Positions 4,635 to 63,934 of a stretch of DNA of 64,000 nucleotides are shown here, in pieces; position 1 is the first letter of the stretch; each line of letters opens with the position of its first letter. The DNA is from Minisyncoccia bacterium. Its GTDB lineage: Bacteria > Patescibacteriota > Minisyncoccia > Phycocordibacterales > UBA9973. Under the pieces are notes generated by a model. The model made no database searches, was not told where the DNA came from, and saw only the letters and a program-made list of their open reading frames with translations. Where the stretch lies: NCBI GenBank assembly GCA_044229265.1, contig JBGATK010000002.1, forward strand, positions 15,092-79,091. Direction: 5' to 3'. The translations under genes and the position numbers were made by a program.

Positions 4635-4678
4635 GGCCCCGACGATTCTATCGGGATCCCGACCTATTGCGTCGGGGC
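4635..4678. repeat. GC-rich nested palindrome (GCCCCGACG...TCGGGATCCCGA...CGTCGGGGC), copy 1 of a 3-member family; likely terminator for upstream SBP gene
   Basis: 9-bp perfect outer inverted repeat enclosing perfect 12-bp palindrome TCGGGATCCCGA; related copies at 38526-38570 and 51188-51227. Confidence 0.7.
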
Positions 4679-11079: not shown

Positions 11080-11152
11080 TTTTTTAGTATAACAAATTTT
11101 TCAAGAATTTTCCTTGCTTTTTATTTTTAACCAATTGTATAATATAGGCACA

Positions 11153-15856: not shown

Positions 15857-16249
15857 ATGGAAAAAGATTTTGATAAGTGGAATGAAATCAAAAAGAAGAT
15901 TCATCAAGAGGAGAATATCCCAGATCGTTTTCCAAAAGAAGGCGAAGTTTGGATGTCTAACCTTGGTAAGAATATTGGATTTGAACAAAATGGAGGTGGA
16001 GAAAATTTCTCTAGGCCTATTTTAATAATTAAGAAATTCAATAATCATATGTTTTGGGTAGTACCTTTGTCCACAAAACAGAAAAATTTTGATTTTTATT
16101 ATAATTTTATAGATATAGATAATAAAAAAGTTTCAGCTATTCTTGCCCAATTAAAATTAATGAGTGTCAAAAGATTTAATAGAAAAATGTATGAAATGCC
16201 TCAAAATCAATTTGTTGATGTTTTGAATAAAATTAGAGGATTTATCTAA
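15857..16249 (+). CDS. MazF/PemK-family endoribonuclease toxin-like protein (solitary, no adjacent antitoxin seen)
   Basis: GEVWMSNLGKNIGFEQNGGGENFSRPILII...FWVVPLSTKQ matches MazF/PemK G-x-I/V-x-L-x-G-x-EQ-x-RP-x-LI-x-VxPxT pattern. Confidence 0.6.
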   Translation: MEKDFDKWNEIKKKIHQEENIPDRFPKEGEVWMSNLGKNIGFEQNGGGENFSRPILIIKKFNNHMFWVVPLSTKQKNFDFYYNFIDIDNKKVSAILAQLKLMSVKRFNRKMYEMPQNQFVDVLNKIRGFI

Positions 16250-16254
16250 AAATC

Positions 16255-16278
16255 GAAAGCCCCCTTTCGGGGGCTTTC
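16255..16278 (+). terminator. strong GC hairpin (gaaagccccc-tttc-gggggctttc) after mazF-like gene
   Basis: 10-bp perfect stem; weak T-tract. Confidence 0.5.
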
Positions 16279-16403
16279 TCGGAGCCTTTCGGCACTTTAT
16301 ACATAGAGTATATCATAACAGAGAGTATAAAGTCAACCTCAGAATCCTTCAAATCTTCCTATTTTGCCTTAGTATTAATACTTTTAAAATAAACTCACAC
16401 GGG

Positions 16404-16664
16404 ATGAAAAATAAAAATGACAAATTACATAGCTTGCCGGCAGATTTTAAGGAAGCGATAGATTCAAAAAGGGCAGTAGCTCATATGTGGCAGGATATCA
16501 CTCCGCTTGCTCGCAATGAATGGATCTGCTGGGTAGAATCTGCCAAAAAATTAGAAACTAGGCAAAGGCGAATAAAAATAGCCCTTTCGAAAATGAGCTC
16601 CGGCGAAAAGCGCCCCTGCTGCTGGGCCGGCTGTTCGCATCGAGGGAATAAAACAGTGGTATAA
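16404..16664 (+). CDS. YdeI/OmpD-associated (bacteriocin-protection) family small protein
   Basis: W-rich core and C-terminal CCWAGCSHR motif typical of YdeI-like family; 3' 122 bp duplicated downstream. Confidence 0.5.
   Translation: MKNKNDKLHSLPADFKEAIDSKRAVAHMWQDITPLARNEWICWVESAKKLETRQRRIKIALSKMSSGEKRPCCWAGCSHRGNKTVV
16522..16643. repeat. direct repeat copy 1 (3' end of ydeI-like gene), 122 bp
   Basis: 121/122 identical to 17312-17433. Confidence 0.9.
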
Positions 16665-16671
16665 TTTATAT

Positions 16672-17154
16672 ATGGAAAAGACAAGTATTTATATTGATGG
16701 AAATAATCTATATAGATCTGCAAAAGAGCTCGGTTTTAATATTGATTACAAAAAATTCATAGGATGGCTTCGTCAAAAATATAATCCAGAATTCGTTTAC
16801 TTGTTTATTGGTCTCGTGCCAGAGAGAACAAAGTTTTATGAACATCTACAAAAATGTGGTTATGTTTTAATTTTTAAACAAACTGTATCTGTGGGAGAAA
16901 AAATAAAAGGTAATTGTGATGCAGAACTGGTATTAAAAGCTGTTTCGGATTATTATACTAACTCATTTGATAAATTAATTTTGATTACTGGTGACGGGGA
17001 TTTTGGTTGCTTGGTGGAATTTATGAAAGATAAAAATTCGATGCATACTATTATTGCACCTGATGAAAAGAAATGTTCTTTTTTACTTAGAAATAAAAAT
17101 ACTGAAATTGTTTTTCTTAACAATCAATATCATAAATTCTCTAAGGAGCTATAA
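16672..17154 (+). CDS. NYN-domain (LabA/DUF88-like, PIN-fold) putative RNase
   Basis: IYIDGNNLY start and ILITGDGDFGCLVE motif typical of NYN domains; gene is bracketed by the 122-bp direct repeats. Confidence 0.65.
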   Translation: MEKTSIYIDGNNLYRSAKELGFNIDYKKFIGWLRQKYNPEFVYLFIGLVPERTKFYEHLQKCGYVLIFKQTVSVGEKIKGNCDAELVLKAVSDYYTNSFDKLILITGDGDFGCLVEFMKDKNSMHTIIAPDEKKCSFLLRNKNTEIVFLNNQYHKFSKEL

Positions 17155-17162
17155 AAGAAAAA

Positions 17163-17199
17163 GCCCCCGGTGCAGACGAATCTGCACAAGGGTCTTTTT
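17163..17199 (+). terminator. rho-independent terminator after NYN gene
   Basis: gtgcaga-cgaa-tctgcac hairpin then T5. Confidence 0.6.
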
Positions 17200-17311
17200 C
17201 ATAGTGATACATGTATACTATCAAATTTTTATAAAAAAGTCAAAGTTTTCCACATTTTATAATCTTGTCAAAATTCCTCATAGATTAAGTCCATCTCGGG
17301 AATGGACATAT

Positions 17312-17433
17312 GGATCTGCTGGGTAGAATCTGCCAAAAAATTAGAAACTAGGCAAAGGCGAATAAAAATAGCCCTTTCGAAAATGAGCTCCGGCGAAAAG
17401 CGCCCCTGCTGCTGGGCCGGGTGTTCGCATCGA
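17312..17433. repeat. direct repeat copy 2 (duplicated ydeI-like 3' end), 122 bp
   Basis: single mismatch versus 16522-16643. Confidence 0.9.
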
Positions 17434-17475
17434 TAAAATGAGCCATATTTAGGTCTGTATTCTGGCGATATTTTG

Positions 17476-17484
17476 TGTTAGAAT
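17476..17484 (+). promoter_or_regulatory. extended -10 (TGtTAGAAT) 6 nt upstream of ATG 17491: leaderless promoter for the mazG-like operon
   Basis: TGn + TAGAAT, 6-nt spacer to ATG. Confidence 0.5.
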
Positions 17485-17490
17485 TTGGGC

Positions 17491-17838
17491 ATGTCTGATT
17501 TACAAAAACTAACAAAGCAAATAAACAAATTCCGAAAAGAACGAAATTGGGAACAATTCCATAATCCTAAAGACATGGCTCTTTCGTTGGTTTTAGAGGC
17601 GACAGAGTTGATGGAGCATTTTCAGTGGAAAAACGGTGAAGATTTAACAAATTATATAAAGAAAAATAAAAAAGAAATTTCTTATGAACTTGCAGATACT
17701 CTTTATTGGGTTTTAACTATTGCTCATGATTTTAATATTGATATTGTAAAATCTTTTACTGAGAAGATGAAAATTAATGCAAAAAAATATCCTGTTTCAA
17801 AATTCAAAGGACGTGCTGGCAAATATAATGAAGTATAA
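17491..17838 (+). CDS. MazG-like nucleoside triphosphate pyrophosphohydrolase
   Basis: EATELMEHF...LADTLYWVL motifs of the all-alpha MazG/NTP-PPase fold; ORF track start 17485 is a TTG, ATG at 17491 preferred. Confidence 0.7.
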   Translation: MSDLQKLTKQINKFRKERNWEQFHNPKDMALSLVLEATELMEHFQWKNGEDLTNYIKKNKKEISYELADTLYWVLTIAHDFNIDIVKSFTEKMKINAKKYPVSKFKGRAGKYNEV

Positions 17839-17841
17839 TTT

Positions 17842-19866
17842 ATGTCCGATATAAAAACTTTCCCTTTTAATAAAGAAGATTTTGATCAAATAAAAAATTT
17901 TAAATTTGGTAAAAATTGGCCTGTTGTTTATGTTCTTGAAGATAAGAAAGAAATTTATATCGGTCAAACGGTAAATGCTCATGCAAGAAGCAAGCAACAT
18001 TATGAAAACCCAGAAAGAAGTAAATTAAAAAGTATTCATATCATAACCGACGAAGAATTTAATGTTTCAGCAGCACTTGATATAGAGTCATGGTTAATAC
18101 AGTACATATCTGCTGATGGATTATTTATATTGCAAAATGGTAATGGTGGGCTAAAAAATCATAACTATTACGATAGAGTAAAATATAAAACAAAATTCGA
18201 ACTTGCTTGGGATAATTTAATGCAAATGGGTATTGTTAAAAACACTCTAGAAGACCTTAAAAATAGCGACTTATTCAAATATTCTCCTTACAAATCTTTG
18301 ACAGAAGACCAATTTACAATAGCTAGGCAGATATTCAAAGACATAAAGAAGAATGAAATAAATACTTTTATAGTAAATGGTAAACCGGGTACTGGTAAAA
18401 CAATTCTTGCTACTTATCTTTTTAAATACCTAAAAGAACAAGATGAAACAAAAAATATGAATATTGGCCTTGTTGTGCCAATGGCATCACTTCGAAAAAC
18501 AATTGCTAGGGTATTTTCAAAAATAAAAGGCTTAAAATCAAACATGGTTATTGGGCCAAATGATGTTGTTAAAGATAAATATGACTTACTTATCGTTGAT
18601 GAATCTCATAGATTACAAAGGCGTAAAGGTATTATGGGTTATGGTGCATATGACAATGTAAACCGAGGGCTTGGCCTGGGTAATGAAGGAACACAGCTTG
18701 ATTGGATTATGAAGTCATCTAAACATCAAATATTTTTCTATGATGAAAATCAAAGTGTAAAACCGGCCGATATTAGACCCGAGGATTTTAAAAAGCTTAA
18801 TTCTAAAAAGTATGAATTAGTTTCCCAAATGCGAGTTGAGGCTGGTGAAGAATATATTAAATTCATCGAAGATTTTTTTGATTTAAAAACTCCACAAAAT
18901 ACTAATTTTCCAAATTATGATTTGAAAATATTTGATAATGCTGAAAAAATGGTAAATGAAATTAAGGAAAAAGATAAAAAGCATAAACTTGCACGTGTAG
19001 TTGCTGGCTATGCTTGGCCTTGGCACACAGCACGTGGTACTCGTGATTATGATATAGAGATAGGTGATTTAAAACTTATCTGGAATTCTACAGCGCAAGA
19101 CTGGGTAAACTCACCAAACGCAATAAACGAAGTTGGTTGTATTCATACTGTACAAGGTTATGATTTAAATTATGTTGGTGTAATTATTGGCCCAGAATTT
19201 TCATATGACACAGAAAATAAAAAATTCAAAGTCGATAAGGAAAAATATTTTGATACAAATGGCCGTAATGGTATTACTGATCCAAACGAACTAGAAAGAT
19301 ATGTAATCAATATTTATAAAACATTACTAACTCGAGGCATTAAAGGTACTTATGTTTATGTTGTTGATGAAAATTTGAGAAATTATTTAAATCAAGTTGT
19401 AAATAAAACCCCGATTTCAATTCAAAAAGAAATTACTCCAAAAATTATAAGATCTCCTTATGCAGGAGAAATGATAGGAATTCCTCTAGTTGGTTCTGCT
19501 CCCTGTGGTGAACCACTTTTAGGAGAAAGCAATATAGAAGAGATAATCATGGTAGAGAAAAGCAAAATAAAACCTGGAGCAAAATATTTTATATTGCGTG
19601 CGAGTGGAGATTCTATGAACAAAGCCGGAATAAATGACGGAGACTTAGTGCTTTGTCGTTCATCAGAAAAAGGAGAAACTGGAGACAGAGTTGTCGCATT
19701 ATTAGGAGGTGAAAATGTGACAATAAAATATTATGATAAAAAAGACGGGCGGAGAATATTATTACCAAAAAGCACAAATAGTTCACACCAACCAATAATT
19801 CCAGAAGAAGGTGATAGTGTTCAGGGCATTGTGCAAGAGGTTATTGAAAGATTAGAGGAAAAATAA
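17842..19866 (+). CDS. three-domain fusion: N-terminal GIY-YIG nuclease, central DUF2075-type SF1-like P-loop ATPase/helicase, C-terminal LexA/UmuD-type S24 peptidase domain
   Basis: VVYVL...EIYIGQT...R...E (GIY-YIG); Walker A GKPGTGKT, Walker B LLIVDESHRL, motif GCIHTVQGYDLNYVGVIIG (SF1 motif VI-like); C-term IPLVGSAPCGEPLL...RASGDSM...GINDGDLV...VTIKYY (S24 Ser-Lys dyad and Cys-Gly cleavage site as in UmuD). Confidence 0.8.
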   Translation: MSDIKTFPFNKEDFDQIKNFKFGKNWPVVYVLEDKKEIYIGQTVNAHARSKQHYENPERSKLKSIHIITDEEFNVSAALDIESWLIQYISADGLFILQNGNGGLKNHNYYDRVKYKTKFELAWDNLMQMGIVKNTLEDLKNSDLFKYSPYKSLTEDQFTIARQIFKDIKKNEINTFIVNGKPGTGKTILATYLFKYLKEQDETKNMNIGLVVPMASLRKTIARVFSKIKGLKSNMVIGPNDVVKDKYDLLIVDESHRLQRRKGIMGYGAYDNVNRGLGLGNEGTQLDWIMKSSKHQIFFYDENQSVKPADIRPEDFKKLNSKKYELVSQMRVEAGEEYIKFIEDFFDLKTPQNTNFPNYDLKIFDNAEKMVNEIKEKDKKHKLARVVAGYAWPWHTARGTRDYDIEIGDLKLIWNSTAQDWVNSPNAINEVGCIHTVQGYDLNYVGVIIGPEFSYDTENKKFKVDKEKYFDTNGRNGITDPNELERYVINIYKTLLTRGIKGTYVYVVDENLRNYLNQVVNKTPISIQKEITPKIIRSPYAGEMIGIPLVGSAPCGEPLLGESNIEEIIMVEKSKIKPGAKYFILRASGDSMNKAGINDGDLVLCRSSEKGETGDRVVALLGGENVTIKYYDKKDGRRILLPKSTNSSHQPIIPEEGDSVQGIVQEVIERLEEK

Positions 19867-19870
19867 ATTT

Positions 19871-20686
19871 ATGAACGAATTACAAGCAATAAAAGAAATA
19901 GTAAAAGCAAATTCAACTGCAGTTTATCAAGATTCAGCACAACCATCTGTTCGTGTTTTAGGAAAGTCTTTAGCACAATGTGTTTCTTTGTTTGCAACAC
20001 CAATTGGTAGGATGGCTGAAATTTTTGAAAAGAATCTCTCACGCTATATTGATAAGTTGGAGGGTTTGTCGTCTGATCAAATCATATTACCAGAAACTAG
20101 AGTGTTAGTTCCAATTCTTGAACGGCTTCGTTATACAGATGACGAAGTAGTCGCTGATTATTATGCTCAAATATTAGCAACTGCTTCAACAACTGAAAAC
20201 GCAAAAAAAGTATCTGTTGCTTTTATTGAGATTCTTAATCGTTTATGTGCAGATGAAATTAGAGTACTTGAATTTATAAATTCACCAAATAATACAATGC
20301 TCCTAGAGAATGAAGCTAATGAAAAATATAATCTTTCACTTTTCGGTGTTTTACCGGTAATAAATATACATTTAAACTTAAAAGAAGGGGGTTATATTGT
20401 AGCCATAAAGAACTTAAATTATCTGACAGAAAAAATTACGCTTAATAATCCCGATAATTTAAATATGTATTTTGACAACATGATTGCATTAGGTCTTCTT
20501 TTGAAACCTGCAATGATAAGGGCTCATGATAATAATATTTATACATATATAAAGAAAAACCTTTTAATAAAAGAAGTTGAATCGAAACTTGCTGAAGGAC
20601 AAACAATTGATTATTCTGAAGCCAGGATAGAAACTACAGAGCTCGGTAAACAATTGTTGAATATTGCATCAAATAAAATAAAGTAG
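19871..20686 (+). CDS. Abi-alpha (DUF4393)-like hypothetical protein, co-operonic with the nuclease-helicase
   Basis: 4-bp gap to upstream gene; segment ILPETRVLVPILERLRYTDDEVVADYYAQILATAS...FIEILNRLCADEIRVLEFI resembles Abi-alpha core pattern; family call tentative. Confidence 0.4.
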   Translation: MNELQAIKEIVKANSTAVYQDSAQPSVRVLGKSLAQCVSLFATPIGRMAEIFEKNLSRYIDKLEGLSSDQIILPETRVLVPILERLRYTDDEVVADYYAQILATASTTENAKKVSVAFIEILNRLCADEIRVLEFINSPNNTMLLENEANEKYNLSLFGVLPVINIHLNLKEGGYIVAIKNLNYLTEKITLNNPDNLNMYFDNMIALGLLLKPAMIRAHDNNIYTYIKKNLLIKEVESKLAEGQTIDYSEARIETTELGKQLLNIASNKIK

Positions 20687-21006: not shown

Positions 21007-21525
21007 ATGACAAAATATATAGTATTTGTGGCAGCTATGCTTTTTATTGGTTTTATTTTTCCTATACTTAAAAAGAAATTAGAGGGCAAGGAAGAAAAAC
21101 CAGCTTTATCTAATTATTTTAATAGAAGAAAATTTTTGTTTGATGTAGCTTCAGAATTGAATTTTTATAAAATATTGATGGAATTATATGGTAATAATTA
21201 TAGAATATTTGCTCAAGTGCAATATAGTCACCTTGTAGAACCAAAGAAATCTTTATCTTTTGTAGAAAGTAGAAAATATAGAAATATGATTGATAGAAAG
21301 TCGGCTGATTTTGTGATTTGTGATAAGGATACTATAGCTCCGATCTTAGTAATAGAGCTCGACGGTAGTGTTCATTCCCAAGCTAAAGTAAGAATAAATG
21401 ATGAATTTAAAAACGAAATAACTAAAGTTGTGGATTTACCATTGCTTCGCATTAATGCTGAGAATATAGATAAAGAATATATAAAAAATAAAATAGATTC
21501 AATTATTTCTTCTCGATTAAATTAA
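21007..21525 (+). CDS. DUF2726-domain protein (restriction-endonuclease-like fold)
   Basis: N-terminal TM; NFYKILMELYG...RIFAQVQYSHLV...ADFVICDKDTIAPILVIELDGSVH pattern typical of DUF2726. Confidence 0.55.
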   Translation: MTKYIVFVAAMLFIGFIFPILKKKLEGKEEKPALSNYFNRRKFLFDVASELNFYKILMELYGNNYRIFAQVQYSHLVEPKKSLSFVESRKYRNMIDRKSADFVICDKDTIAPILVIELDGSVHSQAKVRINDEFKNEITKVVDLPLLRINAENIDKEYIKNKIDSIISSRLN

Positions 21526-35566: not shown

Positions 35567-35757
35567 ATAGTAAATTTGTTTTATAATAATTATTAGAAAA
35601 GCAGAATAATACCAAAGTAGGTGTTTGGATTGATCCGCATTGGATACGTTATTTTTTCTTCTTTCATTTATGCAGTATACCCCAACACTTAAAATATTCA
35701 TAATTTTAAGTGTGTGGGTATAGCATTAATCTCTTTATTTTGTTATGCTCATTAAAT

Positions 35758-37251
35758 ATGGCAAAAGAGGAAACGGTCCTGCGATTTGAGAGAGTCAATT
35801 TTGAATATGGCCACAATAAACCCATCTTGGATGAGGTTTCTTTTTCTGTGCGAAAGGGAAGCAAGATAACTATCATGGGGCAAAATGGTGCGGGCAAGAG
35901 TACTATCTTTGGACTTATCACTCGCGCACTTAATCCAGAAGATGGCAATGTAATCATAGGTAATAAATATAGCATCGCAATTTCCAAGCAAGTAATACCT
36001 AGAGAAGATATGGAGCTAACAGTTAGAGATTTTTTCCATAAATGTTTAGTGGGTGATGATAAAAATAAAAAAATTTACGACATTGATCCTCGCATTGATG
36101 ATGTGCTCGAAGTTGTGAATTTGAGGGGCCATACAAAAGTACACGATAGAATAATCAAAACATTTTCTGGTGGTCAGCAAGCGCGCATTTTACTAGCCTC
36201 AGCACTGATCCAAGATCCAGACATTTTACTTCTCGATGAGCCTACTAACAACTTAGACTCTGCTGGTATTGCGCACCTGACAGACTTTCTTAAAAATTAT
36301 AATAAAACTGTATTAGTGATTTCCCACGATGCGGATTTCTTAAATGCTTTTACAGATGGAGTTTTGTATTTAGATATTCATACTCTCAAAGTTGAGCAAT
36401 ATGTAGGTAATTATAAAAATGTATTAAAAGATATCACTGCTCGAGTAGAAAGGGAGAATATGAAAAATGCTCAACTTGCAAAAGAAATTCAAGCCAAGAA
36501 AGATCAAGCAAATGTTTTTGCTCATAAGGGCGGAGGTCTTCGTTTGGTGGCGCGTCGCATGCGTGAGAAAGCAGAAGAATTGGAAGATGAGATGGTGGAT
36601 GTGCGCAAAGAAGATAAAACCATTCGTCCATTTATTATTCCACATCAGGAAGATCTACAAGGAGAAATTATTTCCATAGAATCTTTTACTACACTAAATA
36701 ATAAAACTGGCAAAGAAGTAAAACACAAAATAAGTATAAAGCTCAAGAAAAATCAACACTTATTTTTGCAAGGACCAAATGGTATCGGTAAGAGTACCTT
36801 ACTAGAGAGGCTCGCAAGTGGAAAGGCAGAAGGTGCGAAAATTCAGGAAGGCGTGCGAGTTGGATACTACAGGCAAGATTTTTCTACACTAAATTTTAAC
36901 GACACAGTAAAAGAATCTTTATCGAAAGTTCTTCTTGAAGTAACTGGTAAAATAGATGAAGAATATATGCGTTCTGTAGCTGCGAATTTTCTTATCACAA
37001 GTGATATCATAAATACAAAAATTGGCGCTCTCTCTGAAGGGCAAAAAGGCCTAGTGGCTTTTGCTAGGCTTGTGCTCGAGCGACCTGGACTACTCATACT
37101 CGATGAACCAACAAATCATATAAATTTTAGACACTTACCTATAATCGCAGACGCTATAGATAAATACAAAGGCGCTTTGATCTTAGTGTCTCACGTAAAA
37201 GAATTTGTAGAAAAAATTCGTATAGACGAGACTCTCGATTTGGATCAATAA
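35758..37251 (+). CDS. ABC-F family ATPase (tandem ABC domains, EttA/Uup-like translation factor)
   Basis: two Walker A (GQNGAGKST; GPNGIGKST), two signature motifs (SGGQQARI; SEGQKGLV), no TM domains; ATG at 35758. Confidence 0.8.
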   Translation: MAKEETVLRFERVNFEYGHNKPILDEVSFSVRKGSKITIMGQNGAGKSTIFGLITRALNPEDGNVIIGNKYSIAISKQVIPREDMELTVRDFFHKCLVGDDKNKKIYDIDPRIDDVLEVVNLRGHTKVHDRIIKTFSGGQQARILLASALIQDPDILLLDEPTNNLDSAGIAHLTDFLKNYNKTVLVISHDADFLNAFTDGVLYLDIHTLKVEQYVGNYKNVLKDITARVERENMKNAQLAKEIQAKKDQANVFAHKGGGLRLVARRMREKAEELEDEMVDVRKEDKTIRPFIIPHQEDLQGEIISIESFTTLNNKTGKEVKHKISIKLKKNQHLFLQGPNGIGKSTLLERLASGKAEGAKIQEGVRVGYYRQDFSTLNFNDTVKESLSKVLLEVTGKIDEEYMRSVAANFLITSDIINTKIGALSEGQKGLVAFARLVLERPGLLILDEPTNHINFRHLPIIADAIDKYKGALILVSHVKEFVEKIRIDETLDLDQ

Positions 37252-39461: not shown

Positions 39462-39618
39462 TAAATTGAGAACCCCGACATTTCAAGTCGGGAAGCAAGT
39501 CTCAAAATGTTTCTAAAATAATAATTTCTAGAGCAGGATCAAATTGTGAACTCTGCAAAAAACTACCGAGCCTTTGGGCGAGGTGAATCTGTTTTTTGTT
39601 TTGTTCCATTCTAACTTT

Positions 39619-41228
<1,610 letters not shown>

Positions 41229-41495
41229 TTTTGAAATATCTCACTTTTTATTAAGTGGGTGATCGAGTCGATCTTTTGTGCCACAATTGAGCACAAAAGA
41301 GTTTGGTTAAACTTAAAACAACATGACATTTGGAAAGACAAAAAACAATAAAGTTTCCTTCGTCGCTAAAGCTATGAAGGATAAGAATGGAACAAAACAA
41401 AGAACATATTCAATGTTTTCTCTAAAAGAAAAACTCTTCGCAAGAAGGGTTTTTCTTTTTACTGATTTTTAATTTTTGTTGTATAATATATGTAT

Positions 41496-56658: not shown

Positions 56659-57410
56659 ATGTCAAAGTGTCAAAGGGCATCTTTGACATTAAATAATAAA
56701 GTTTGTTTTATAAGATTTTCTTTGCCTTCGAATAATTCTATAAAGAATTTTTTTTCTAGGATTGGTAAATCCTCGTTTGTTTTATAAAAATTATAACTGC
56801 TCCATCTATAATTTTCAGGCTTTTTAATAAGGCCATCTTTTACTGCATTCATATGTATATAAGCACTGGTCCACATTATTTGTGAATTTGATTCCATGCA
56901 TACTGCTTTAAATTGATCTTGAAAAACATGGCCCACACGATTGTATTTTTTATTATAATATTTTGAATAACTGGTTATTATTTTATGAATAAACTTAGAA
57001 ATAGAATAATCACTATTTTGTTCTATTAATAAATGGAAATGATTTTGCATTAAAGTAAATGCATGTATTTTAATTTTATTTTTTTCTGAGCCAATAATCC
57101 TGATACGTGAATAGGGCATATTAAAAATCGAATGATTTAATTCTTTAATTTCAAAACCAAGAGCCAGTCCAAGACGAAATAAAAAAGCTCGATAGTCTTG
57201 ATCATCTAAATATATTTTTTCCTTATTATTGCCACGATTATAAATATGGTAAAAATTTCCTTTTTCAAATTTTTTATAATCTCTGTTGTTTGCCATATTA
57301 TTTATATTAATGTCAAAGATGCCCTTTGACATTAATATTTTATCAAATTCACAATAATAATCAGTATTTAAATGTGGAAAACTGTGTGTCAAAGATGCCC
57401 TTTGACATAT
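56659..57410 (-). mobile_element. IS200/IS605-family element (tnpA only) bounded by palindromic hairpins TGTCAAAGGGCATCTTTGACA (one at left, two inverted copies at right)
   Basis: hairpins at 56668-56688, 57311-57331, 57387-57407; left hairpin abuts gyrA stop codon. Confidence 0.8.
56670..57296 (-). CDS. tnpA: IS200-like / REP-associated tyrosine (Y1, HUH) transposase
   Basis: HuH motif NHFHLLIEQ and C-terminal YRWSSYNFY tyrosine motif; start set at Met just downstream of hairpin (ORF-track start 57392 reads through hairpin). Confidence 0.75.
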   Translation of the reverse strand: MANNRDYKKFEKGNFYHIYNRGNNKEKIYLDDQDYRAFLFRLGLALGFEIKELNHSIFNMPYSRIRIIGSEKNKIKIHAFTLMQNHFHLLIEQNSDYSISKFIHKIITSYSKYYNKKYNRVGHVFQDQFKAVCMESNSQIMWTSAYIHMNAVKDGLIKKPENYRWSSYNFYKTNEDLPILEKKFFIELFEGKENLIKQTLLFNVKDAL

Positions 57411-57512: not shown

Positions 57513-58106
57513 ATGAAAAAAATAATTTTTCTTGTTTTTATTTACTGTATTTTTTTTATACGTGTTTTCTCTCAAGAAATTGTTGTTAAAATTAATAAAA
57601 TTTCAAAAAACACTTATTTACTTGATATTAGAATCGATACAATTTTAGAAGGATTTCGTTTAGACAACGAAAATTCTTATGTATCAATTGTGGATCAGGA
57701 TTCTATTGATTTGGGTAATTATGAAATATTCCATTTTGATAATTTCGGACGTATTTTACAGGAATTTATAGATAAAAATTCTGAACAAGTAAAATTTATA
57801 CGTTTGAATTTAATTTTTTTAGATAAGCTTACTGGTGCAAAGAAACACGATTCTTTTTACTATGAACTTTATGTCAAAGAAAAAAGATTCTTAGTAGATA
57901 AGGATTTTTTAGAGAATAAAGAGCTTAAGGTCTATTTCAATGACAATATGCTCTCTCGAGCATTGATTTGGAATTGTGAGGGAAAACTTGTTTCTGCGCT
58001 TGATATTTATTCTGGTGTATCCGAAAAAATCGATTTTTTGCATTTTGGAGTCTATTTTTTAACTTTGACTGGTTTTGACAATACAGAAAAAATATTAATT
58101 AGATAA
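57513..58106 (+). CDS. hypothetical secreted protein
   Basis: signal peptide MKKIIFLVFIYCIFFIRVFS, 197 aa. Confidence 0.45.
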   Translation: MKKIIFLVFIYCIFFIRVFSQEIVVKINKISKNTYLLDIRIDTILEGFRLDNENSYVSIVDQDSIDLGNYEIFHFDNFGRILQEFIDKNSEQVKFIRLNLIFLDKLTGAKKHDSFYYELYVKEKRFLVDKDFLENKELKVYFNDNMLSRALIWNCEGKLVSALDIYSGVSEKIDFLHFGVYFLTLTGFDNTEKILIR

Positions 58107-58178
58107 TTTGAATGATTTCTATCATCAATGCCTGTAGAGATTTACTTGCAGGCATTTTTTGTAGTATAATTTATTGTA

Positions 58179-58706
58179 ATGTTTGTCGAACCGGTAAAAA
58201 TTTTAAAAACCTTTGGTGTCCATGAGAATATGGTAGTCGCTGACCTCGGAGCAGGAAGTGGTTTTTATACATTACCACTAGCTCAAATGGCTGTGGGTGG
58301 CAAAGTCTATGCTATAGAAATACAAAAAGATTTCTTACTTACTATTAGAAATAAAGTTAAAGAATATAAATTAGACAATGTAGAATGTCTTTGGGGAAAT
58401 ATTGAAATAAAAGGCGGAACAAGACTAGGGGATAATGTGGCTGATAGAGTAGTGGTTTCCAATGTTTTTTTTCAAGTAGAACATAAAGAGAAATTTTTAG
58501 ACGAAGTGTATAGAATAATAAAGCCAAGTGGCAAAGTTTTACTGATAGATTGGCATGATGCTGATAGTCCACTTGCTCCAAAAGGTAATGCCTTGGTACC
58601 TGAAGAAAAAGCGCGTAGTTTTTTTGAACAAAAAGGTTTTCTTTTTGAGAAAAATGTGGATGCAGGTGATCATCATTATGGTATGATATTTAAAGTAAAA
58701 AAATAA
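58179..58706 (+). CDS. class I SAM-dependent methyltransferase
   Basis: motif I VADLGAGSGFYTLPLA; TATAAT 8 nt upstream of ATG. Confidence 0.7.
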   Translation: MFVEPVKILKTFGVHENMVVADLGAGSGFYTLPLAQMAVGGKVYAIEIQKDFLLTIRNKVKEYKLDNVECLWGNIEIKGGTRLGDNVADRVVVSNVFFQVEHKEKFLDEVYRIIKPSGKVLLIDWHDADSPLAPKGNALVPEEKARSFFEQKGFLFEKNVDAGDHHYGMIFKVKK

Positions 58707-58707
58707 C

Positions 58708-60000
58708 ATGAAAAATTTTCAAATTATTAGCTTGGTGGTTTTCGGATTATTTGCGGTCTTTGGACTTTTAGTTTTTTCTGGAACTATAGACATAGGCTCT
58801 AATAATCAAAATACTGCTAAGGGCACCGTGACGCTCTGGGGCACATATGATAAAAGTAATATAGAATCTCTGATAGATGATTTCAATGCTCGCAATCAGA
58901 CTTTTGAAGTAAAATATTCGAAAAAAGATGAAGCAACTTTTGCCGGAGATTTACTCGAAGCTATAGCTTCTGGCACTGGACCTGATATGTTTTTCTTGCC
59001 AGATGACCTAGCTTTGCAATATGCAAATAAGATTTATACTATTCCGTATGCTAGTTATCCTGTAGCTTCTTATAAAAATTCTTTTGCACAGGCTGGGGAA
59101 GTATTTTTAACTTCACGTGGGATACTAGCTTTTCCTATGGTTATTGATCCACTCGTTATGTATTACAATAGAAATATCTTGGATTCAAATAGTATTGCTT
59201 ACCCACCTAATAATTGGGAAGAATTTACAATTCAAGCTACAAAAATTACTAAAAAGGACGCTGATAAGCAGATACAAAAAAGTGCAGTAGGTTTCGGACA
59301 ATACTCAAATGTATCTGGAGCAAAAGACATACTTGCTATGCTTTTTATGCAAATAGGTAATGGTATTGTGAAAGAAAAAGGAAGTGATTTTGGATCAGTG
59401 CTTAATGAAAAGGTGGCAAATTTACCAGCTCCAGAGACCGTGATACCTTTTTATATTTCTTTTGCTGATCCGTCTAAGACTAATTATGTTTGGAATAAAT
59501 CTTTTCCAAATTCACGGGAATATTTCGTAGCAGATAATTCAGCATTTTATTTCGGTCATGCTAGTGAGTTTACTGCTCTCGTAAATAAAAATCCAAATCT
59601 TAATTTTGGTATGGCAGAAGTTCCTCAGATAAAAAATTCGAATCTGAAAATTACCGGAGCTCGTACTACTGGTATAGCTGTGACTTCATTTTCAAAGAAT
59701 TTGAATACTGCACTTACTGCAGCAGGACTCATGGCTACTACGGATTTTGCAGATAAATTTGCAAAAGCTGTGGGCGGTGCGCCAGCGCGGAGAGATCTCC
59801 TTGCTGGCGCACCTACAGGCGAAGTTTCGCCCGCAGTATATTCTTCTGCCTTATTCTCTCGTAGTTGGCTTGATCCTAATTCTGCTAGTACTGACAATAT
59901 TTTCCGTGCCATGATAGACGGAGCTTTTTCAAATAACCGCTCGGGTGCTGATGTAATAGAAGAAGCTTCCGGAAGGTTAGAATTATTACTTCGAAAATAA
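58708..60000 (+). CDS. extracellular solute-binding (SBP family 1, sugar-type) fold lipoprotein-like protein, no cognate permease/ATPase adjacent
   Basis: N-terminal TM/signal, 430 aa, SBP_bac_1-like composition; tightly packed with flanking genes. Confidence 0.55.
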   Translation: MKNFQIISLVVFGLFAVFGLLVFSGTIDIGSNNQNTAKGTVTLWGTYDKSNIESLIDDFNARNQTFEVKYSKKDEATFAGDLLEAIASGTGPDMFFLPDDLALQYANKIYTIPYASYPVASYKNSFAQAGEVFLTSRGILAFPMVIDPLVMYYNRNILDSNSIAYPPNNWEEFTIQATKITKKDADKQIQKSAVGFGQYSNVSGAKDILAMLFMQIGNGIVKEKGSDFGSVLNEKVANLPAPETVIPFYISFADPSKTNYVWNKSFPNSREYFVADNSAFYFGHASEFTALVNKNPNLNFGMAEVPQIKNSNLKITGARTTGIAVTSFSKNLNTALTAAGLMATTDFADKFAKAVGGAPARRDLLAGAPTGEVSPAVYSSALFSRSWLDPNSASTDNIFRAMIDGAFSNNRSGADVIEEASGRLELLLRK

Positions 60001-60002
60001 AT

Positions 60003-60464
60003 ATGAGTAAAATTATGAAAAATATCTTAAAAAAATTTCTTGTTTCGGTAGCTATATTATTTATGTTTTGCGCACCAACCTTTGCTTTTGCAGTAGAAAA
60101 AGAAGATGGAGGAGGACTGATACCTTGTGGTCTTACAAATAAAGAATTAAAAAAAGATCCTGCTACTGGACAAGTAACTGGAGGACAAATCAATGTTCCG
60201 TGCACTTTTGATCATGTCTTGGTCCTCATAAATAATGTCGTAAATTTTTTACTATTTAAATTAGCTGTGCCACTAGCAGCTATCGTATTTGTTTATGCTG
60301 GTGTTCAATTAATCACTTCTGGTGGTAGTAGCGAAGGTATGCAAAAAGCTAAAGCCATATTTACTTCGACAGCTATGGGGCTAATACTTGCTGTGGCGGC
60401 TTGGTTAATTATCCACACCTTGCTTACTATTGTAGGTTACGATGGTTCTTGGATTGGGTTATAA
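60003..60464 (+). CDS. paralog 1 of 5: signal peptide + two-TM small protein (VirB2/TrbC-pilin-like topology)
   Basis: signal MSKIMKNILKKFLVSVAILFMFCAPTFAFA; two C-terminal hydrophobic helices separated by polar loop SGGSSEGMQKAKA. Confidence 0.5.
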   Translation: MSKIMKNILKKFLVSVAILFMFCAPTFAFAVEKEDGGGLIPCGLTNKELKKDPATGQVTGGQINVPCTFDHVLVLINNVVNFLLFKLAVPLAAIVFVYAGVQLITSGGSSEGMQKAKAIFTSTAMGLILAVAAWLIIHTLLTIVGYDGSWIGL

Positions 60465-60476
60465 TATTTATATATA

Positions 60477-60863
60477 ATGAATTTAAGTAAAAAAATCTTT
60501 GCATCGATGTTTCTAGCTTTAACTCTAGGAGTATTTCTGGTACCAACATTTTCTTATGCGCAAGATTCAAATAGTAAAATTACAGTTTCTGAAAAAGTAA
60601 AAAACCCGCTCGGTAGTAAATTTGAAAACTTAAATGATTTTGTAAAGACTCTACTTGAAGGATTTATTAAGATTTTGATACCCGTTATCGCTCTCGCTAT
60701 TATATATGCAGGACTTTTGTTTGTGACAGCTCGTGGAAATACAGAGAAAATTACTACAGCCAAGAATGCATTGCTATACGGGGTAATAGGGGCAGGGCTG
60801 GTACTCGGTGCGTGGGCACTGGCACAGCTGATATCCGATACCGTGATACAATTAAATGGTTAA
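60477..60863 (+). CDS. paralog 2 of 5 (VirB2/TrbC-like topology)
   Basis: signal ...VPTFSYAQ; helices IPVIALAIIYAGLLFV / LLYGVIGAGLVLGAWALA with loop TARGNTEKITTAKN. Confidence 0.5.
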   Translation: MNLSKKIFASMFLALTLGVFLVPTFSYAQDSNSKITVSEKVKNPLGSKFENLNDFVKTLLEGFIKILIPVIALAIIYAGLLFVTARGNTEKITTAKNALLYGVIGAGLVLGAWALAQLISDTVIQLNG

Positions 60864-60884
60864 TTATTAGTTAATATTATTAAA

Positions 60885-61283
60885 ATGAAAAAAGTAAAAA
60901 AACATATAGATAAAATATTTATTACGGGATTAGCATTGGCATTGCCTATGACGACTTTTGCGCAGAGTTCTAGTTGTTTAGCTGACTTTAAAAAAGAAGG
61001 TACATTAGGAGCACTTTTTGAATATTTAATTTGCTTAGCCCAAAGCTCTATAGTGCCACTATTATTTGTGGTAGCTATGGTTGCTTTTATTTGGGGTGTA
61101 GTGCAGTTTGTAGCAGGTGCTGATAATGAAGAGAAAAGAGAGAAAGGCAGGCAATTTATGATTTGGGGTATCGTGGGACTTGCAGTTATGGTTTCAGTAT
61201 GGGGACTCGTATCAATATTTACAAAATCTTTCGGAATTGATAATAACATCAAAGCACCTACTTTACCGAAATTACCAACATAA
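60885..61283 (+). CDS. paralog 3 of 5 (VirB2/TrbC-like topology)
   Basis: signal ...PMTTFAQ; helices LLFVVAMVAFIWGVVQFVAG / MIWGIVGLAVMVSVWGLVSIF with loop ADNEEKREKGRQF. Confidence 0.5.
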   Translation: MKKVKKHIDKIFITGLALALPMTTFAQSSSCLADFKKEGTLGALFEYLICLAQSSIVPLLFVVAMVAFIWGVVQFVAGADNEEKREKGRQFMIWGIVGLAVMVSVWGLVSIFTKSFGIDNNIKAPTLPKLPT

Positions 61284-61388
61284 ATAGTATTGCAAGAATT
61301 TTAGTTGTGGTATAATTAGTTTGTCTATATTAGGCAAAAATTATTATTAAAAGGTCGTTTAAATTTATTATCAATAATTAAATAAAAT

Positions 61389-61799
61389 ATGAAGAATTTA
61401 AAATCAAAGTTTTTAATTAGTGCAGGTACAGTAGCTGGCATAGCTATGCCACTTATGGCTTTCGCGCAATCAGTGCAAGATAATTGTGTAGGTCAAAACC
61501 CTGGCACTATTAACTTTATCCTTTGTAAGATAGCTTTCTTTATAAGTAGTATTATACCGATACTTATCACTCTCGGTGTTATTTACTTTATTTGGGGTGT
61601 TATCCAATACGCTATTGCTCAAGACGAAGAAGCAAAAACTCGTGGTCGCGATATCATGATATATGGTCTTATCGCACTACTCGTTATCGTTTCTATTTGG
61701 GGACTAGTAGCAATACTTCAAAATACTTTCGGTATTCAAGGTAGTGCAAAGATAAACATTCCTTGTATCGAAACTCAAGGCGTGAAGTGTCCGACCTAA
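61389..61799 (+). CDS. paralog 4 of 5 (VirB2/TrbC-like topology)
   Basis: signal ...PLMAFAQ; loop AQDEEAKTRGRDI between two hydrophobic helices; closest to paralog 3. Confidence 0.5.
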   Translation: MKNLKSKFLISAGTVAGIAMPLMAFAQSVQDNCVGQNPGTINFILCKIAFFISSIIPILITLGVIYFIWGVIQYAIAQDEEAKTRGRDIMIYGLIALLVIVSIWGLVAILQNTFGIQGSAKINIPCIETQGVKCPT

Positions 61800-61809
61800 T
61801 TTCTTTTGT

Positions 61810-62151
61810 ATGGATTTCTTTTTTGTAAATACAGCTTATGCTAGTCTAGATACATTTCTCGCAAATGCAAATAGGCTAATCATAAACCCTATCATATACC
61901 TTTTGTTTGCTATTGCATTTGTTTATTTCTTGTATGGCATGGTGGAATTTATCGCTGGTGCTGACAATGAAGAAAAGCGCATGACAGGCAAGAGTCATAT
62001 GCTTTGGGGTATAGTTGGGCTCGGAATCATGATGGGAGTTTGGACTATATTACAGATAGTTATAAATACACTCGGGATTGAGAAAATCGACCCCAAGAAT
62101 CAAAAAGTAGAGCTCAATGATTATAATCCGAAATTTCCACCTAGTAAATAA
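61810..62151 (+). CDS. paralog 5 of 5, N-terminally degenerate (no convincing signal peptide)
   Basis: shares FIAGADNEEKRMTGKSHMLWGIVGLGIMMGVWTIL core with paralog 3 but starts MDFFFVNTAYASLD. Confidence 0.45.
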   Translation: MDFFFVNTAYASLDTFLANANRLIINPIIYLLFAIAFVYFLYGMVEFIAGADNEEKRMTGKSHMLWGIVGLGIMMGVWTILQIVINTLGIEKIDPKNQKVELNDYNPKFPPSK

Positions 62152-62177: not shown

Positions 62178-62212
62178 AAAAAAGCCCGAACATAATAAGT
62201 TCGGGCTTTTGC
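62178..62212. terminator. bidirectional terminator between convergent operons
   Basis: gcccgaac-ataataa-gttcgggc flanked by A7 and T4. Confidence 0.75.
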
Positions 62213-62239: not shown

Positions 62240-62725
62240 TTATTTATGAATCTCAACCTCTGTGATCTGGTAAAGATACACAGTGAAAGGTTCTTTTTCG
62301 GTCGTATCAGCTTTTAGTTTAATTACGTCGCCGTAATTTACTAAAGGACTATTATACTGTTCTATTTTTTTAGAGCGGAACTGCCACTCCTTGATCGATG
62401 GATAATAAACGAAATGGTCATGTCCGTTTACTCGAACTTTTACTCCACCAGTGAATTCTATAGGTGGAAGTGTAAGTTCACTACCAGGATAACAGATGAA
62501 TTCACCTTTGGGGTTTAACATCTCTACCGTTTTGGTATTTTCCTTTTTGTCTTCATCCTTTTTTTCTTCACTTTTATTGCACCCTCCTTTTAAGAGAAGT
62601 AATAAAACAAAAAGAAGAATTATTCGAATCACCCACGTGATAGCTGTCCCAGTTGGGCCAGTCATAGATGGGGCATTATTTGCTGGTGGAGGAGGTGTGC
62701 CTCCTCCGGTATTAGCTGTTGCCAT
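62240..62725 (-). CDS. hypothetical single-TM protein with Pro/Gly-rich N-terminal tail
   Basis: MATANTGGGTPPPPANNAPSMTGPTGT then TM WVIRIILLFVLLLLL then ~100-aa extracytoplasmic domain. Confidence 0.4.
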   Translation of the reverse strand: MATANTGGGTPPPPANNAPSMTGPTGTAITWVIRIILLFVLLLLLKGGCNKSEEKKDEDKKENTKTVEMLNPKGEFICYPGSELTLPPIEFTGGVKVRVNGHDHFVYYPSIKEWQFRSKKIEQYNSPLVNYGDVIKLKADTTEKEPFTVYLYQITEVEIHK

Positions 62726-63934
62726 TTAGGTTTTTTTAATTGGTGATGGTTTTTTTACTTTCTTTTTCTGTCCGGAGTTTCCTCCTTTTAAAGCAACTGC
62801 TGCAGTAGCAATAGCTTTGATTGTATCAGGAGTAAATTTTTCTACTATTTTCGGATCTAAACCCGAGAAATTGATGTTGTAATCGTTTTGATCGATCGTT
62901 TTCTTCCAATCGATTCCTGAAAAGAATGCTGCGAAAACTGTAGCGTCTTGTTTTTCTAAACCAAATTCTCCCTCCATAAGCATCGCTAACATTAATTTAA
63001 AATTGGCCGTATCGGTCAATTTGCTCTGTTGCGCAAGCGTCTTTTCATCTGGCTGTGAATCATACACAGTCGGTTCAGAAAATTTAATCGGATATCTAGA
63101 AGCCAATGGATTAAACGTATTTTTTGGAAAAATTTCTTTAGATTTTGCTGCACTACATTCAATTACAGTTTTCTCTTTGTAGAAATCTTGCATTACTGCT
63201 TTTGCAAAAACTGTTTGCTCTTCCTTGATCGTATTTTTATATTCTATAAACTTCATAGCATTTTGTGCTATTACTTCGATAGGAGTAGTTTCCTCTCCTA
63301 AATAAGCTTTGCTTATCACTGAGGCCTTTCCTTTAAACAAGGTTCCAGGAGTTTTCGTCTGAAAGTCATCTTCTATTTCGGTAATGATATCTGCTTTCAA
63401 ATCGATATAATCCTGATACTTTGCAAAGATAGATCTCCAATTGAAACCATTAAAATATACTCTTTTCTCTTTTGTTAAAGTATCAAGGAGTACTATGCAT
63501 GTTAATGCATTTGGCTCAATGTAAGTTCTAGCGAGCAAGATTAGCAACACCCCAACAAATATAGCTAGGCATGTGTAGACTTGAGTCATAAAATCAGGTA
63601 TACCCAAAAGTGTGAATACCATCAAAGAGATTAAACTGCTAATGCCACAAATAAATGAAATATTTGTGATTAATACATAGTTTTCAAATTTCACTTCTTT
63701 TATCTTTCTTAATTTAAGAGTTGTAAAAAAGAAAAAAGTTGATGTTCCTAGTATTACTAACAATACTATTATTATTGAAGCATCAGCAAGCAAATTTAAT
63801 ACATTTCCAGATTTACTTACAATATAAGTAAATGAAGAATTTATTATTTCCTTTTGCTCCGGAGAGCCGAAGAAAATAACAGTTAAGCAGATTGCAATTA
63901 AACAACCCACAAAAATTAAGATTCTATTGATCAT
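62726..63934 (-). CDS. hypothetical polytopic membrane protein with C-terminal soluble domain
   Basis: 402 aa; ~5 N-terminal TM helices; co-directional and abutting 62240-62725. Confidence 0.4.
   Translation of the reverse strand: MINRILIFVGCLIAICLTVIFFGSPEQKEIINSSFTYIVSKSGNVLNLLADASIIIVLLVILGTSTFFFFTTLKLRKIKEVKFENYVLITNISFICGISSLISLMVFTLLGIPDFMTQVYTCLAIFVGVLLILLARTYIEPNALTCIVLLDTLTKEKRVYFNGFNWRSIFAKYQDYIDLKADIITEIEDDFQTKTPGTLFKGKASVISKAYLGEETTPIEVIAQNAMKFIEYKNTIKEEQTVFAKAVMQDFYKEKTVIECSAAKSKEIFPKNTFNPLASRYPIKFSEPTVYDSQPDEKTLAQQSKLTDTANFKLMLAMLMEGEFGLEKQDATVFAAFFSGIDWKKTIDQNDYNINFSGLDPKIVEKFTPDTIKAIATAAVALKGGNSGQKKKVKKPSPIKKT

Follow-up and report, generated by a model that had tools for sequence, protein, structure and literature searches.

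Five position-fixed VirB2/TrbC-type pilins encoded behind an orphan solute-binding protein in a Nomurabacteria-like genome

Why would an ultrasmall bacterium keep five different pilin genes in a row directly behind a solute-binding protein (SBP) that has no transporter of its own? The question is raised by seven open reading frames (ORFs) at positions 58179-62151 of a 64-kb stretch of Minisyncoccia DNA (contig JBGATK010000002.1), referred to here as the window. All seven lie on the + strand, encode proteins of 175, 430, 153, 128, 132, 136 and 113 aa and are separated by 1, 2, 12, 21, 105 and 10 bp, exactly as an earlier reading, made from the sequence alone, had mapped them. That sequence-only reading saw a methyltransferase (MTase), a lone SBP-fold protein and five paralogous VirB2/TrbC-like proteins, the last taken to be antigenically diversified subunits of a pilus or surface filament. 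We find that the five paralogs belong to a type IV secretion system (T4SS) pilin family and form a fixed set, each copy being held at its own position under purifying selection. In the explanation that we favour, and consider moderately likely, the locus specifies a heteromeric T4SS-associated pilus or conduit built from five non-redundant pilins of the VirB2/TrbC superfamily, with the SBP and the MTase co-transcribed.

The window is housekeeping chromosome of low GC content (~34%) that includes RNase J, SecA, Mur ligases, S1, GyrA, 16S rRNA and a small defence-like island. Homologues of the SBP, the MTase and the fifth pilin carry the names Nomurabacteria, Paceibacterota, Minisyncoccia or Patescibacteria. 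The operon is chromosomal and vertically inherited, and its host is a Nomurabacteria-like member of the Patescibacteria (class Paceibacteria), an ultrasmall bacterium of the candidate phyla radiation (CPR).

Five pilins of one family

The five genes that end the operon encode pilin 1 (P1; 60003-60464, 153 aa), P2 (60477-60863, 128 aa), P3 (60885-61283, 132 aa), P4 (61389-61799, 136 aa) and P5 (61810-62151, 113 aa), all on the + strand. Their paralogy was borne out by pairwise BLASTP (E 1e-6 to 6e-25; identity 20-52%, with P3/P5 at 52% and P3/P4 at 39%) and by a family hidden Markov model (HMM), which among the 285 window ORFs matched P1-P5 only, even at E<=10. All five scored above the gathering score of 26.6 bits of the T4SS_pilin family PF18895, with 35.4, 34.1, 40.4, 27.5 and 36.2 bits from P1 to P5, and precomputed Pfam calls on a public contig with identical proteins agreed with this result. 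P2 was the only paralog above the cut-off of the TrbC/VirB2 family PF04956 (29.4 versus 27.9 bits), its residues 2-118 aligning to profile positions 2-97 of 98; P1 (21.8 bits) and P4 (12.6 bits) fell below it and P3 and P5 were unlisted. For four of the five, the best NCBIfam match was NF045849 (20.7-35.7 bits, P2 scoring best; scores other than that of P2 were 11.6-33.3 bits), in every case below the curated cut-off of 40. The bacteriocin, holin and Flp models that had also been considered found no family support in Pfam or NCBIfam. These matches uphold the proposal of a VirB2/TrbC-type T4SS pilin architecture.

The sequence features named earlier, namely signal peptides ending in AFA, YAQ or FAQ and two hydrophobic helices joined by a charged loop, could be seen directly in the proteins and in their hydropathy. 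The signal peptides of P1-P4 begin with a stretch rich in K/R, continue with a hydrophobic core and have A-x-A-type ends (TFAFA before VEK in P1, FSYA before QD in P2, TTFA before QSS in P3 and MAFA before QSV in P4), and each of the four proteins closes with a hairpin of two transmembrane (TM) helices. Between signal peptide and hairpin, P1 has a variable ectodomain with a Cys pair; P3 also contains one Cys pair and P4 two. P5 starts with MDFFFVNTAYA, followed by S, and has neither an n- nor an h-region, no Cys and no classical signal peptide. Its AlphaFold2 (AF2) model, built with 36 orthologues, shows the two-TM hairpin (helices 13-49 and 54-87) followed by a small C-terminal beta-hairpin, with a pLDDT of 80 overall and 88-97 in the core.

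Conservation and transcription signals of the array

An alignment of the SBP served to fetch 80 loci, each from the representative genome of a different species; Nomurabacteria and Paceibacterota were the names that most of these genomes bore. Pilin-family ORFs were found in these loci solely immediately downstream of the SBP gene and on the same strand, the common gene order being GyrA-MTase-SBP and then five or six pilins. Among 77 complete arrays, 55 had five genes, 18 had six and four had fewer. When each pilin of the 55 five-gene arrays was matched to the other arrays, the best match lay at the same position in 2969, 2862, 2747, 2790 and 2862 of 2970 cases for positions 1 to 5. This diagonal best-hit matrix indicates that the paralogs are ancient and fixed, each copy having been retained. 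The median identity of the window pilins to their same-position orthologues (44, 48, 47, 46 and 57% for P1 to P5) was about equal to or higher than the identity among P1-P5 themselves, and P5 represents the most conserved orthogroup.

Each position also has a signature of its own. A signal-peptide-like N-terminus was present in 91-100% of orthologues at positions 1-4, versus 24% at position 5. At position 1 it was present in 100% of orthologues, with paired Cys in 89%. The number of Cys was even at positions 1, 3 and 4 in 89-98% of species (98% at position 4). In position-1 orthologues of 346-743 aa, fn3/Ig-like domains follow the signal peptide and precede the hairpin, and position-3 orthologues are often fused double pilins of 250-350 aa, two T4SS_pilin domains being found in three of them (L059, L017, L022). 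Position 5 is the shortest across species and lacks both Cys and a classical signal peptide, and its short N-terminus is itself conserved (consensus MDLFSTK[IV]AYA, then S or A). This mini-leader (61810-61845 in the window), which keeps an A-x-A-type end without an n- or h-region and is absent in a minority of species, may be cleaved, be a relic kept by overlapping constraints or serve as a recognition tag.

Selection was estimated as the ratio of nonsynonymous to synonymous substitution rates (dN/dS; Nei-Gojobori) against two close relatives whose SBPs are 95% (L088) and 82% (L089) identical to that of the window. Values were 0.06-0.11 for P1, 0.05-0.10 for P2, 0.12-0.17 for P3, 0.04-0.08 for P4 and 0.06-0.10 for P5, much like those of the SBP (0.06-0.08); the MTase gave 0.11-0.12. 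All five pilins are under purifying selection, as are the SBP and the MTase. Both relatives keep the same five genes, and no gene conversion or turnover was seen between them. Position-specific orthology and low dN/dS throughout led us to reject the notion of antigenically diversified subunits. The earlier description of P5 as a degenerate copy without a proper signal peptide holds in part: the missing classical signal peptide is real, but the most conserved member of the set, with a conserved N-terminus of its own, is not degenerate.

Transcription signals frame the operon on both sides. Upstream (58127-58170, + strand), a terminator-like hairpin (58127-58156) overlaps a promoter-like site (58141-58170; TTTACT, 18 nt, TATAAT) whose -10 element ends 9 nt before the ATG of the MTase gene, so that the MTase transcript would be near-leaderless. 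Downstream, a bidirectional terminator hairpin at 62180-62210 (12-bp stem, U/A tracts on both sides) sits between the end of the pilin operon and the convergent genes beyond it; weak Rfam matches at this place (NsiR1, Thr_leader) are accounted for by the hairpin.

A third set of signals lies within the 105-bp spacer between P3 and P4 (61290-61357, + strand). It comprises TTGCAA (61290-61295), 15 nt, an extended -10 element TGgTATAAT (61308-61316), then ATTATTATTA (61340-61349) and GGTCG (61353-61357). The spacer before the penultimate pilin is long throughout the relatives (median 119 bp); TGnTAnAAT occurs in 49 of 73 such spacers, against ~0.03 expected per spacer, and [AG]GTCG preceded by ATTAT.A in 68 of 73. 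Copies of ATTAT[TA]A (median 3) often stand 9-11 nt apart. The promoter and leader motif is specific to the spacer between the antepenultimate and penultimate pilins: the strict leader motif occurs there 36 times versus 6 times elsewhere in 2.57 Mb. A structured RNA was considered for the leader and rejected, since RNAalifold gave an energy of 0, the minimum free energy of the window sequence (-7.7) equalled that of shuffles and Rfam returned no match; ATTATTA as a general translation or promoter signal was likewise rejected, being found upstream of only 4 of 56 window genes. From motif conservation we read the spacer as a putative internal promoter with a protein-binding or AU-rich element, which would set P4-P5 apart from P1-P3. 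The interest of this leader is that Shine-Dalgarno (SD) sites appear to be almost wholly missing from the rest of the genome, which also appears to be largely leaderless. About 52 of the 56 window genes lack an SD-like motif, and in many of them TATAAT stands 5-12 nt ahead of the ATG. The 3' end of the 16S rRNA (39618-41230) reads ...GGATTAATTCAATT, with no CCTCC anti-SD.

Partners, known relatives and competing explanations

The gene directly ahead of P1 (58708-60000, + strand) encodes an extracellular SBP of 430 aa with the SBP_bac_1/MalE-UgpB cluster-B fold, assigned from the Pfam matches of its homologues and from Foldseek. Of more than 1500 homologues, typically 56-60% identical, most match PF01547 or PF13416 and are annotated, in Nomurabacteria, Paceibacterota or Minisyncoccia, as 'extracellular solute-binding protein'; the window protein itself lies below the Pfam thresholds. 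Among PDB sequences, sugar SBPs were matched at E 1e-6. Foldseek with an AF2 model of moderate confidence (pLDDT 69) returned oligosaccharide, glycerol-3-phosphate and dinucleotide SBPs (E 1.7e-18 to 1e-15; TM-score 0.57-0.69), in agreement with a bilobed MalE-type fold. The fold (E 1e-18, TM-score up to 0.69) is thus common to the window protein and the cluster-B SBPs of ATP-binding cassette (ABC) transporters, such as MalE, UgpB, GacH and the Thermus dinucleotide-binding protein. The window protein differs from these in its low identity (14-19%), in having no cognate permease or ATPase genes, in being encoded with pilins and in an N-terminal TM anchor of unusually conserved sequence (residues ~2-24; conservation reaches 90% or more at 16 of the first 30 positions).

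No BPD_transp or transporter-type ABC ATPase gene adjoins the SBP gene in the window or in three annotated relatives (L002, L004, L006); the description of a 430-aa SBP-fold protein without a permease or ATPase partner therefore holds. The sole ABC ATPase of the window (35710-37251), 21 kb from the SBP gene, has two ABC_tran stretches and no membrane-protein match, and is read as a soluble ABC-F-type protein. A second SBP at 4664-6421 (- strand; SBP_bac_5, E 2e-68) also has no adjoining permease or ATPase, and orphan SBPs may be a general trait of the genome.

The first gene of the operon (58179-58706, + strand) encodes a class I S-adenosylmethionine-dependent MTase of 175 aa, as had been proposed; Pfam Methyltransf_11, _25 and _31 matched it at E 6e-14 to 9e-12. 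It has no TM segment, is expected in the cytoplasm and matched generic class-I models only, with no specific family in Pfam or NCBIfam. A search for relatives outside the clade was uninformative, the best 120 matches all belonging to the same lineage under generic names. The MTase gene stands directly upstream of the SBP gene in 76 of 76 eligible loci, with a median gap of 6 nt (maximum 118); the gap from SBP to P1 has a median of 5 nt, and 79 of 80 loci have 60 nt or less between SBP and pilins. Insertions (a Y1 transposase with the window protein p197, or Maf) occur between GyrA and MTase in 21 of 71 loci; there were none at the MTase-SBP junction and one at the SBP-P1 junction. The SBP is probably coupled functionally to the pilins, since these junctions are short and essentially uninterrupted, the SBP is an envelope protein and its TM helix is conserved.

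Arrays of this kind have been published. Applying the same Pfam models to 3,035 Patescibacteria genomes, Quinonero-Coronel et al. 2025 (PMC12102498) described 441 arrays of 2-11 VirB2-like genes with a mean identity of 25% and a maximum of 54%, suggesting that array variation may aid adaptation to different hosts. The window array falls within these ranges, with five tandem genes and 20-52% identity, and shares with the published ones the phylum, the families PF18895 and PF04956, a chromosomal location, the absence of a relaxase context and a monoderm host. In Southlakia epibionticum ML1, the T4SS cluster, including a six-pilin array, is essential (Wang et al. 2023, PMC10633639). That array lies inside the T4SS cluster, whereas the window array sits after gyrA in an operon with an SBP and an MTase, more than 10 kb from any VirB4. 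Neither paper mentions an SBP or gyrA beside arrays, the sole methyltransferase in either text being the rRNA methyltransferase KsgA near virB4; nothing else was found in the literature. Published arrays were seen as variable paralogs, in contrast to the fixed orthogroups under purifying selection found here. The kind of array is therefore already known, the SBP/MTase association and the internal promoter are undescribed, and the interpretation is corrected to a fixed heteromeric set with a functional P5.

More distant systems show the same mixture of likeness and difference. The classical VirB2/TrbC/TraA pilins of the mating-pair formation (MPF) types T and F share with the window pilins a long signal peptide ending in A-x-A(Q), two helices, a short basic loop and a mature size of ~70-100 aa; the window differs in its monoderm host, in having five distinct subunits instead of one and in that virB1 and virB3 do not adjoin the pilin genes, unlike in all eight reference plasmids. 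The tandem virB2 genes of Bartonella and Anaplasma (cited in PMC12102498) are likewise several divergent copies in host-associated bacteria, but they are thought to diversify for immune evasion, whereas the window copies are ancient, position-fixed and under purifying selection. Mycoplasma integrative and conjugative elements (ICEs), whose system is monoderm and of MPF-FATA type, likewise encode a small pilin-like protein with two TM helices, Mbov_0395/MMCAP2_0565 (NF045849); its gene stands singly in the ICE, as opposed to a chromosomal five-gene array.

An analogy of organisation is offered by filaments of another kind. In the type II secretion system (T2SS) and type IV pili (T4P), one abundant conserved subunit is combined with about four specialised and less conserved ones (GspG with GspH/I/J/K; PilA with FimU/PilV/W/X); the subunits are encoded together and form a single filament, the tip of which bears the larger ones. 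The window similarly has five subunits, of which P5 is the most conserved and P1 and P3 bear extra domains in orthologues. Fold and machinery are unrelated, however, T2SS and T4P belonging to the type IV filament superfamily and depending on a prepilin peptidase, and the window pilins have no class III signal peptides.

We propose the following model. P1-P4 would be exported by Sec and cleaved at their A-x-A sites, whereas P5, with no signal peptide to be cleaved, would insert according to the positive-inside rule. All five would then be helical hairpins in the membrane, their N- and C-termini facing outward and their K/R-rich loops facing the cytoplasm. A monoderm-type (MPF-FATA-derived) VirB4 machinery, encoded elsewhere on the chromosome in relatives, may then extract the pilins and build from them a single heteromeric pilus or a conduit across the envelope. 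The major subunit would be P5, perhaps together with P4, a candidacy based on P5 being the shortest and most conserved, on its lack of Cys and on the separate promoter. P1-P3 would be minor or tip subunits, as their disulfide-containing ectodomains, the fn3 inserts of some species and the double-pilin fusions suggest. The TM-anchored SBP could capture a host-derived glycan or nucleotide-like ligand, or bind a host surface glycan, beside the pilus or conduit; the MTase may modify a component or be a mere syntenic neighbour.

The model would matter because a single Patescibacterium is genetically tractable, and in it the T4SS and its pilin array are essential. That the five or six subunits are distinct, strongly conserved and fixed as a set speaks for a heteromeric structure in which they divide the work, and against variation of an antigenic or host-range kind. 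It concerns one of the largest environmental CPR lineages, in which the array, with its own internal promoter and leader, always lies directly 3' of an orphan SBP of sugar or nucleotide type. If the SBP link is functional, the ligand is a testable handle on the role of the structure; if it is not, the locus is one more member of a published class.

The link between this locus and a T4SS is weakly suggested by the family membership of the pilins and by VirB4, which is present in 11 of the 12 named Nomurabacteria metagenome-assembled genomes (MAGs) that hold the locus (Table S1 of PMC12102498), the exception being a partial MAG of 550 kb. Several observations weigh against the model. VirB4 is found in ~80% of all Patescibacteria assemblies, so its co-occurrence discriminates poorly. 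No VirB4, VirB6, VirB3, VirD4, relaxase or ABC permease was found in the 64-kb window, which agrees with the sequence-only reading as to VirB4, and T4SS machinery is absent within +-10 kb of the locus in the three annotated relatives. Alignment by hhalign to VirB2/TrbC of eight MPF_T plasmids was collinear and non-significant (E 0.05-0.07), a PDB-sequence profile search found nothing, and Foldseek with the P5 model returned generic hairpins only (best E 4.8). Furthermore, a pilus has not been observed in any Patescibacteria T4SS to date. Finally, the whole region is syntenic: gyrA lies 60 nt or less upstream of the MTase gene in 43 of 71 loci, and Lactamase_B_3, S1, RbfA and IF-2 are equally syntenic with the operon in relatives, so that the adjacency of MTase and SBP could reflect inheritance and not function. 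A search of 72,556 plasmids with P2 (tblastn) gave nothing relevant. By these profile comparisons, homology to classical VirB2 is remote, and the function of the Patescibacteria T4SS has been described as 'completely unknown'.

This synteny is an argument for the rival that survives best, a mixed operon in which only the pilins form a functional unit and the MTase, possibly also the SBP, is an unrelated gene merely co-transcribed in a compact genome. The housekeeping nature of gyrA and the generic character of the MTase speak for it, and we regard it as doubtful yet a real possibility. Against it stand the distribution of insertions, which fall between GyrA and MTase and spare the MTase-SBP junction, the promoter and terminator boundary that the MTase of the window lineage shares with SBP and pilins, and the envelope location common to SBP and pilins. 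No rearranged context separating function from inheritance was found among the loci compared. Apparent GyrA-less loci, considered as a test of module mobility, proved to be artefacts, ORFs of 820 and 777 aa being present.

A second rival dispenses with the T4SS: the hairpins would form a hetero-oligomeric channel or scaffold in the cytoplasmic membrane that takes over ligand from the SBP or displays it, without VirB4, for non-ABC uptake or as a 'bindosome-like' surface assembly. The tight SBP-pilin spacing and the missing permease and ATPase would suit such a device, as would the unusual conservation of the SBP TM helix, which suggests intramembrane partners, the fact that VirB4 is never nearby and the dependence of these organisms on scavenging. 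All five pilins nevertheless belong to a family defined by T4SS context, the operon encodes no energising component, the fn3-bearing and double-pilin variants resemble filament or adhesin subunits and not channel subunits, a VirB2-like transporter is without known precedent and the region-wide synteny weakens the argument from adjacency. We judge it unlikely.

A bolder version of the coupling, to which we give a somewhat slimmer chance, makes, in the Nomurabacteria lineage, the VirB2-like pilins and the membrane-anchored SBP, perhaps with the MTase, a self-contained organelle for tapping the host and not an accessory of secretion. The five fixed pilins would be its heteromeric conduit, and the SBP would capture host glycans or nucleotides for import. 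Were this true, the essential Patescibacteria 'T4SS pilus' would gain a function in nutrient acquisition and a defined ligand-binding component.

Antigenic or host-range diversification, in which the paralogs are interchangeable variants of one pilin that help the cell to escape recognition or to suit different host strains, as proposed for the Bartonella and Anaplasma virB2 genes and speculated in PMC12102498, is very improbable in our view. Identity within the array is as low as in the published ones, the ectodomains between signal peptide and hairpin are variable, and positions 1 and 3 differ largely in length between species. Position-specific orthogroups across 55 species, SBP-like dN/dS for each copy, the signal peptide, Cys pattern and length that are characteristic of and fixed at each position, and stable gene content between close relatives all point the other way.

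That the five proteins are not pilins at all, but class II bacteriocin-like peptides with immunity proteins, holin-like or DUF308/HdeD-type proteins, can be practically discounted despite their small size, signal peptides and two TM helices, a sub-threshold DUF308 match (21.7 bits, below 25) and the spurious homologue names YidH and SdhC, because no bacteriocin, immunity or holin family matched at E<=1 in Pfam or NCBIfam, no family but PF18895 exceeded its cut-off in every one of the five, genes for a bacteriocin ABC exporter or peptidase are missing nearby and housekeeping-level conservation in ~80 species is atypical for bacteriocins.

Neighbouring genes of the window

Convergent to the pilin operon, on the - strand at 62240-63934, lies a cassette of two genes encoding c161 (161 aa, one TM segment) and c402 (402 aa, an N-terminal multi-TM region and a soluble domain). 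Neither had a family match in Pfam or NCBIfam. A pair of genes for ~150 and ~300-400 aa occupies the same place in L002, L004, L006 and L089; c161 and c402 are 33% identical to their L089 orthologues (L089:11517-13198), compared with 92% for GyrA, 93% for P5 and ~90% for c263, and c402 was detectable by sequence in 17 of 66 loci and c161 in none. The cassette is a hypervariable surface or membrane cassette whose position is conserved; its link to the pilin operon is unproven. The protein c263 (263 aa; L001:176-967), encoded just past the right end of the window, is conserved in 64 of 66 loci. It starts with a TM or signal segment and contains an Ig domain of IPT/TIG-like type (faint Pfam match). 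At its C-terminus a conserved 'GGFMPT..LQWI' motif, a TM helix and a basic tail come one after the other, an arrangement resembling a tripartite sorting signal.

Between gyrA and the MTase gene, an IS200-like Y1 transposase (PF01797) is encoded at 56670-57392 (- strand). Homologues occur in 23 loci, where their median place is immediately ahead of the MTase gene, and its dN/dS of 0.10-0.13 (L088, L089) indicates purifying selection, which suggests a domesticated or RAYT-like gene and not an active insertion sequence. The next gene, p197 (57513-58106), encodes a signal-peptide protein of 197 aa with a weak match to a type IX secretion system (T9SS)-type C-terminal sorting domain (16.6 bits, below 23); outside the window it occurs solely in L088 and L089, both close relatives, and its evolution is comparatively rapid (dN/dS 0.22-0.24, 53-60% identity).

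Many independent MAG contigs (L008-L087) end ~17-20 kb upstream of the SBP gene. In the window, the 16S rRNA gene lies at a matching distance, which indicates that assemblies break at the rRNA and that synteny reaches there at least. The label Saccharibacteria is borne by several of these MAGs and Burkholderiales by one, probably through mislabelling or misbinning. The 16S rRNA gene is followed by a D-Ala-D-Ala ligase gene; Rfam reports the 16S alone in the window, and with no adjoining 23S it is an unlinked rRNA gene.

Farther away, a small defence- or toxin-like island at 15857-20686 encodes a MazF/PemK-like toxin (15857-16249), an NYN-domain protein (16672-17154), a fusion of a Schlafen-group-3 helicase with Peptidase_S24 (17842-19866) and Abi_alpha (19871-20686), and is followed by DUF2726 (21007-21525). 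A protein of 1068 aa encoded at 11114-14320 combines a right-handed beta-helix region with an LCAT-like (lecithin:cholesterol acyltransferase/lipase) domain and may be a secreted lipid-scavenging enzyme.

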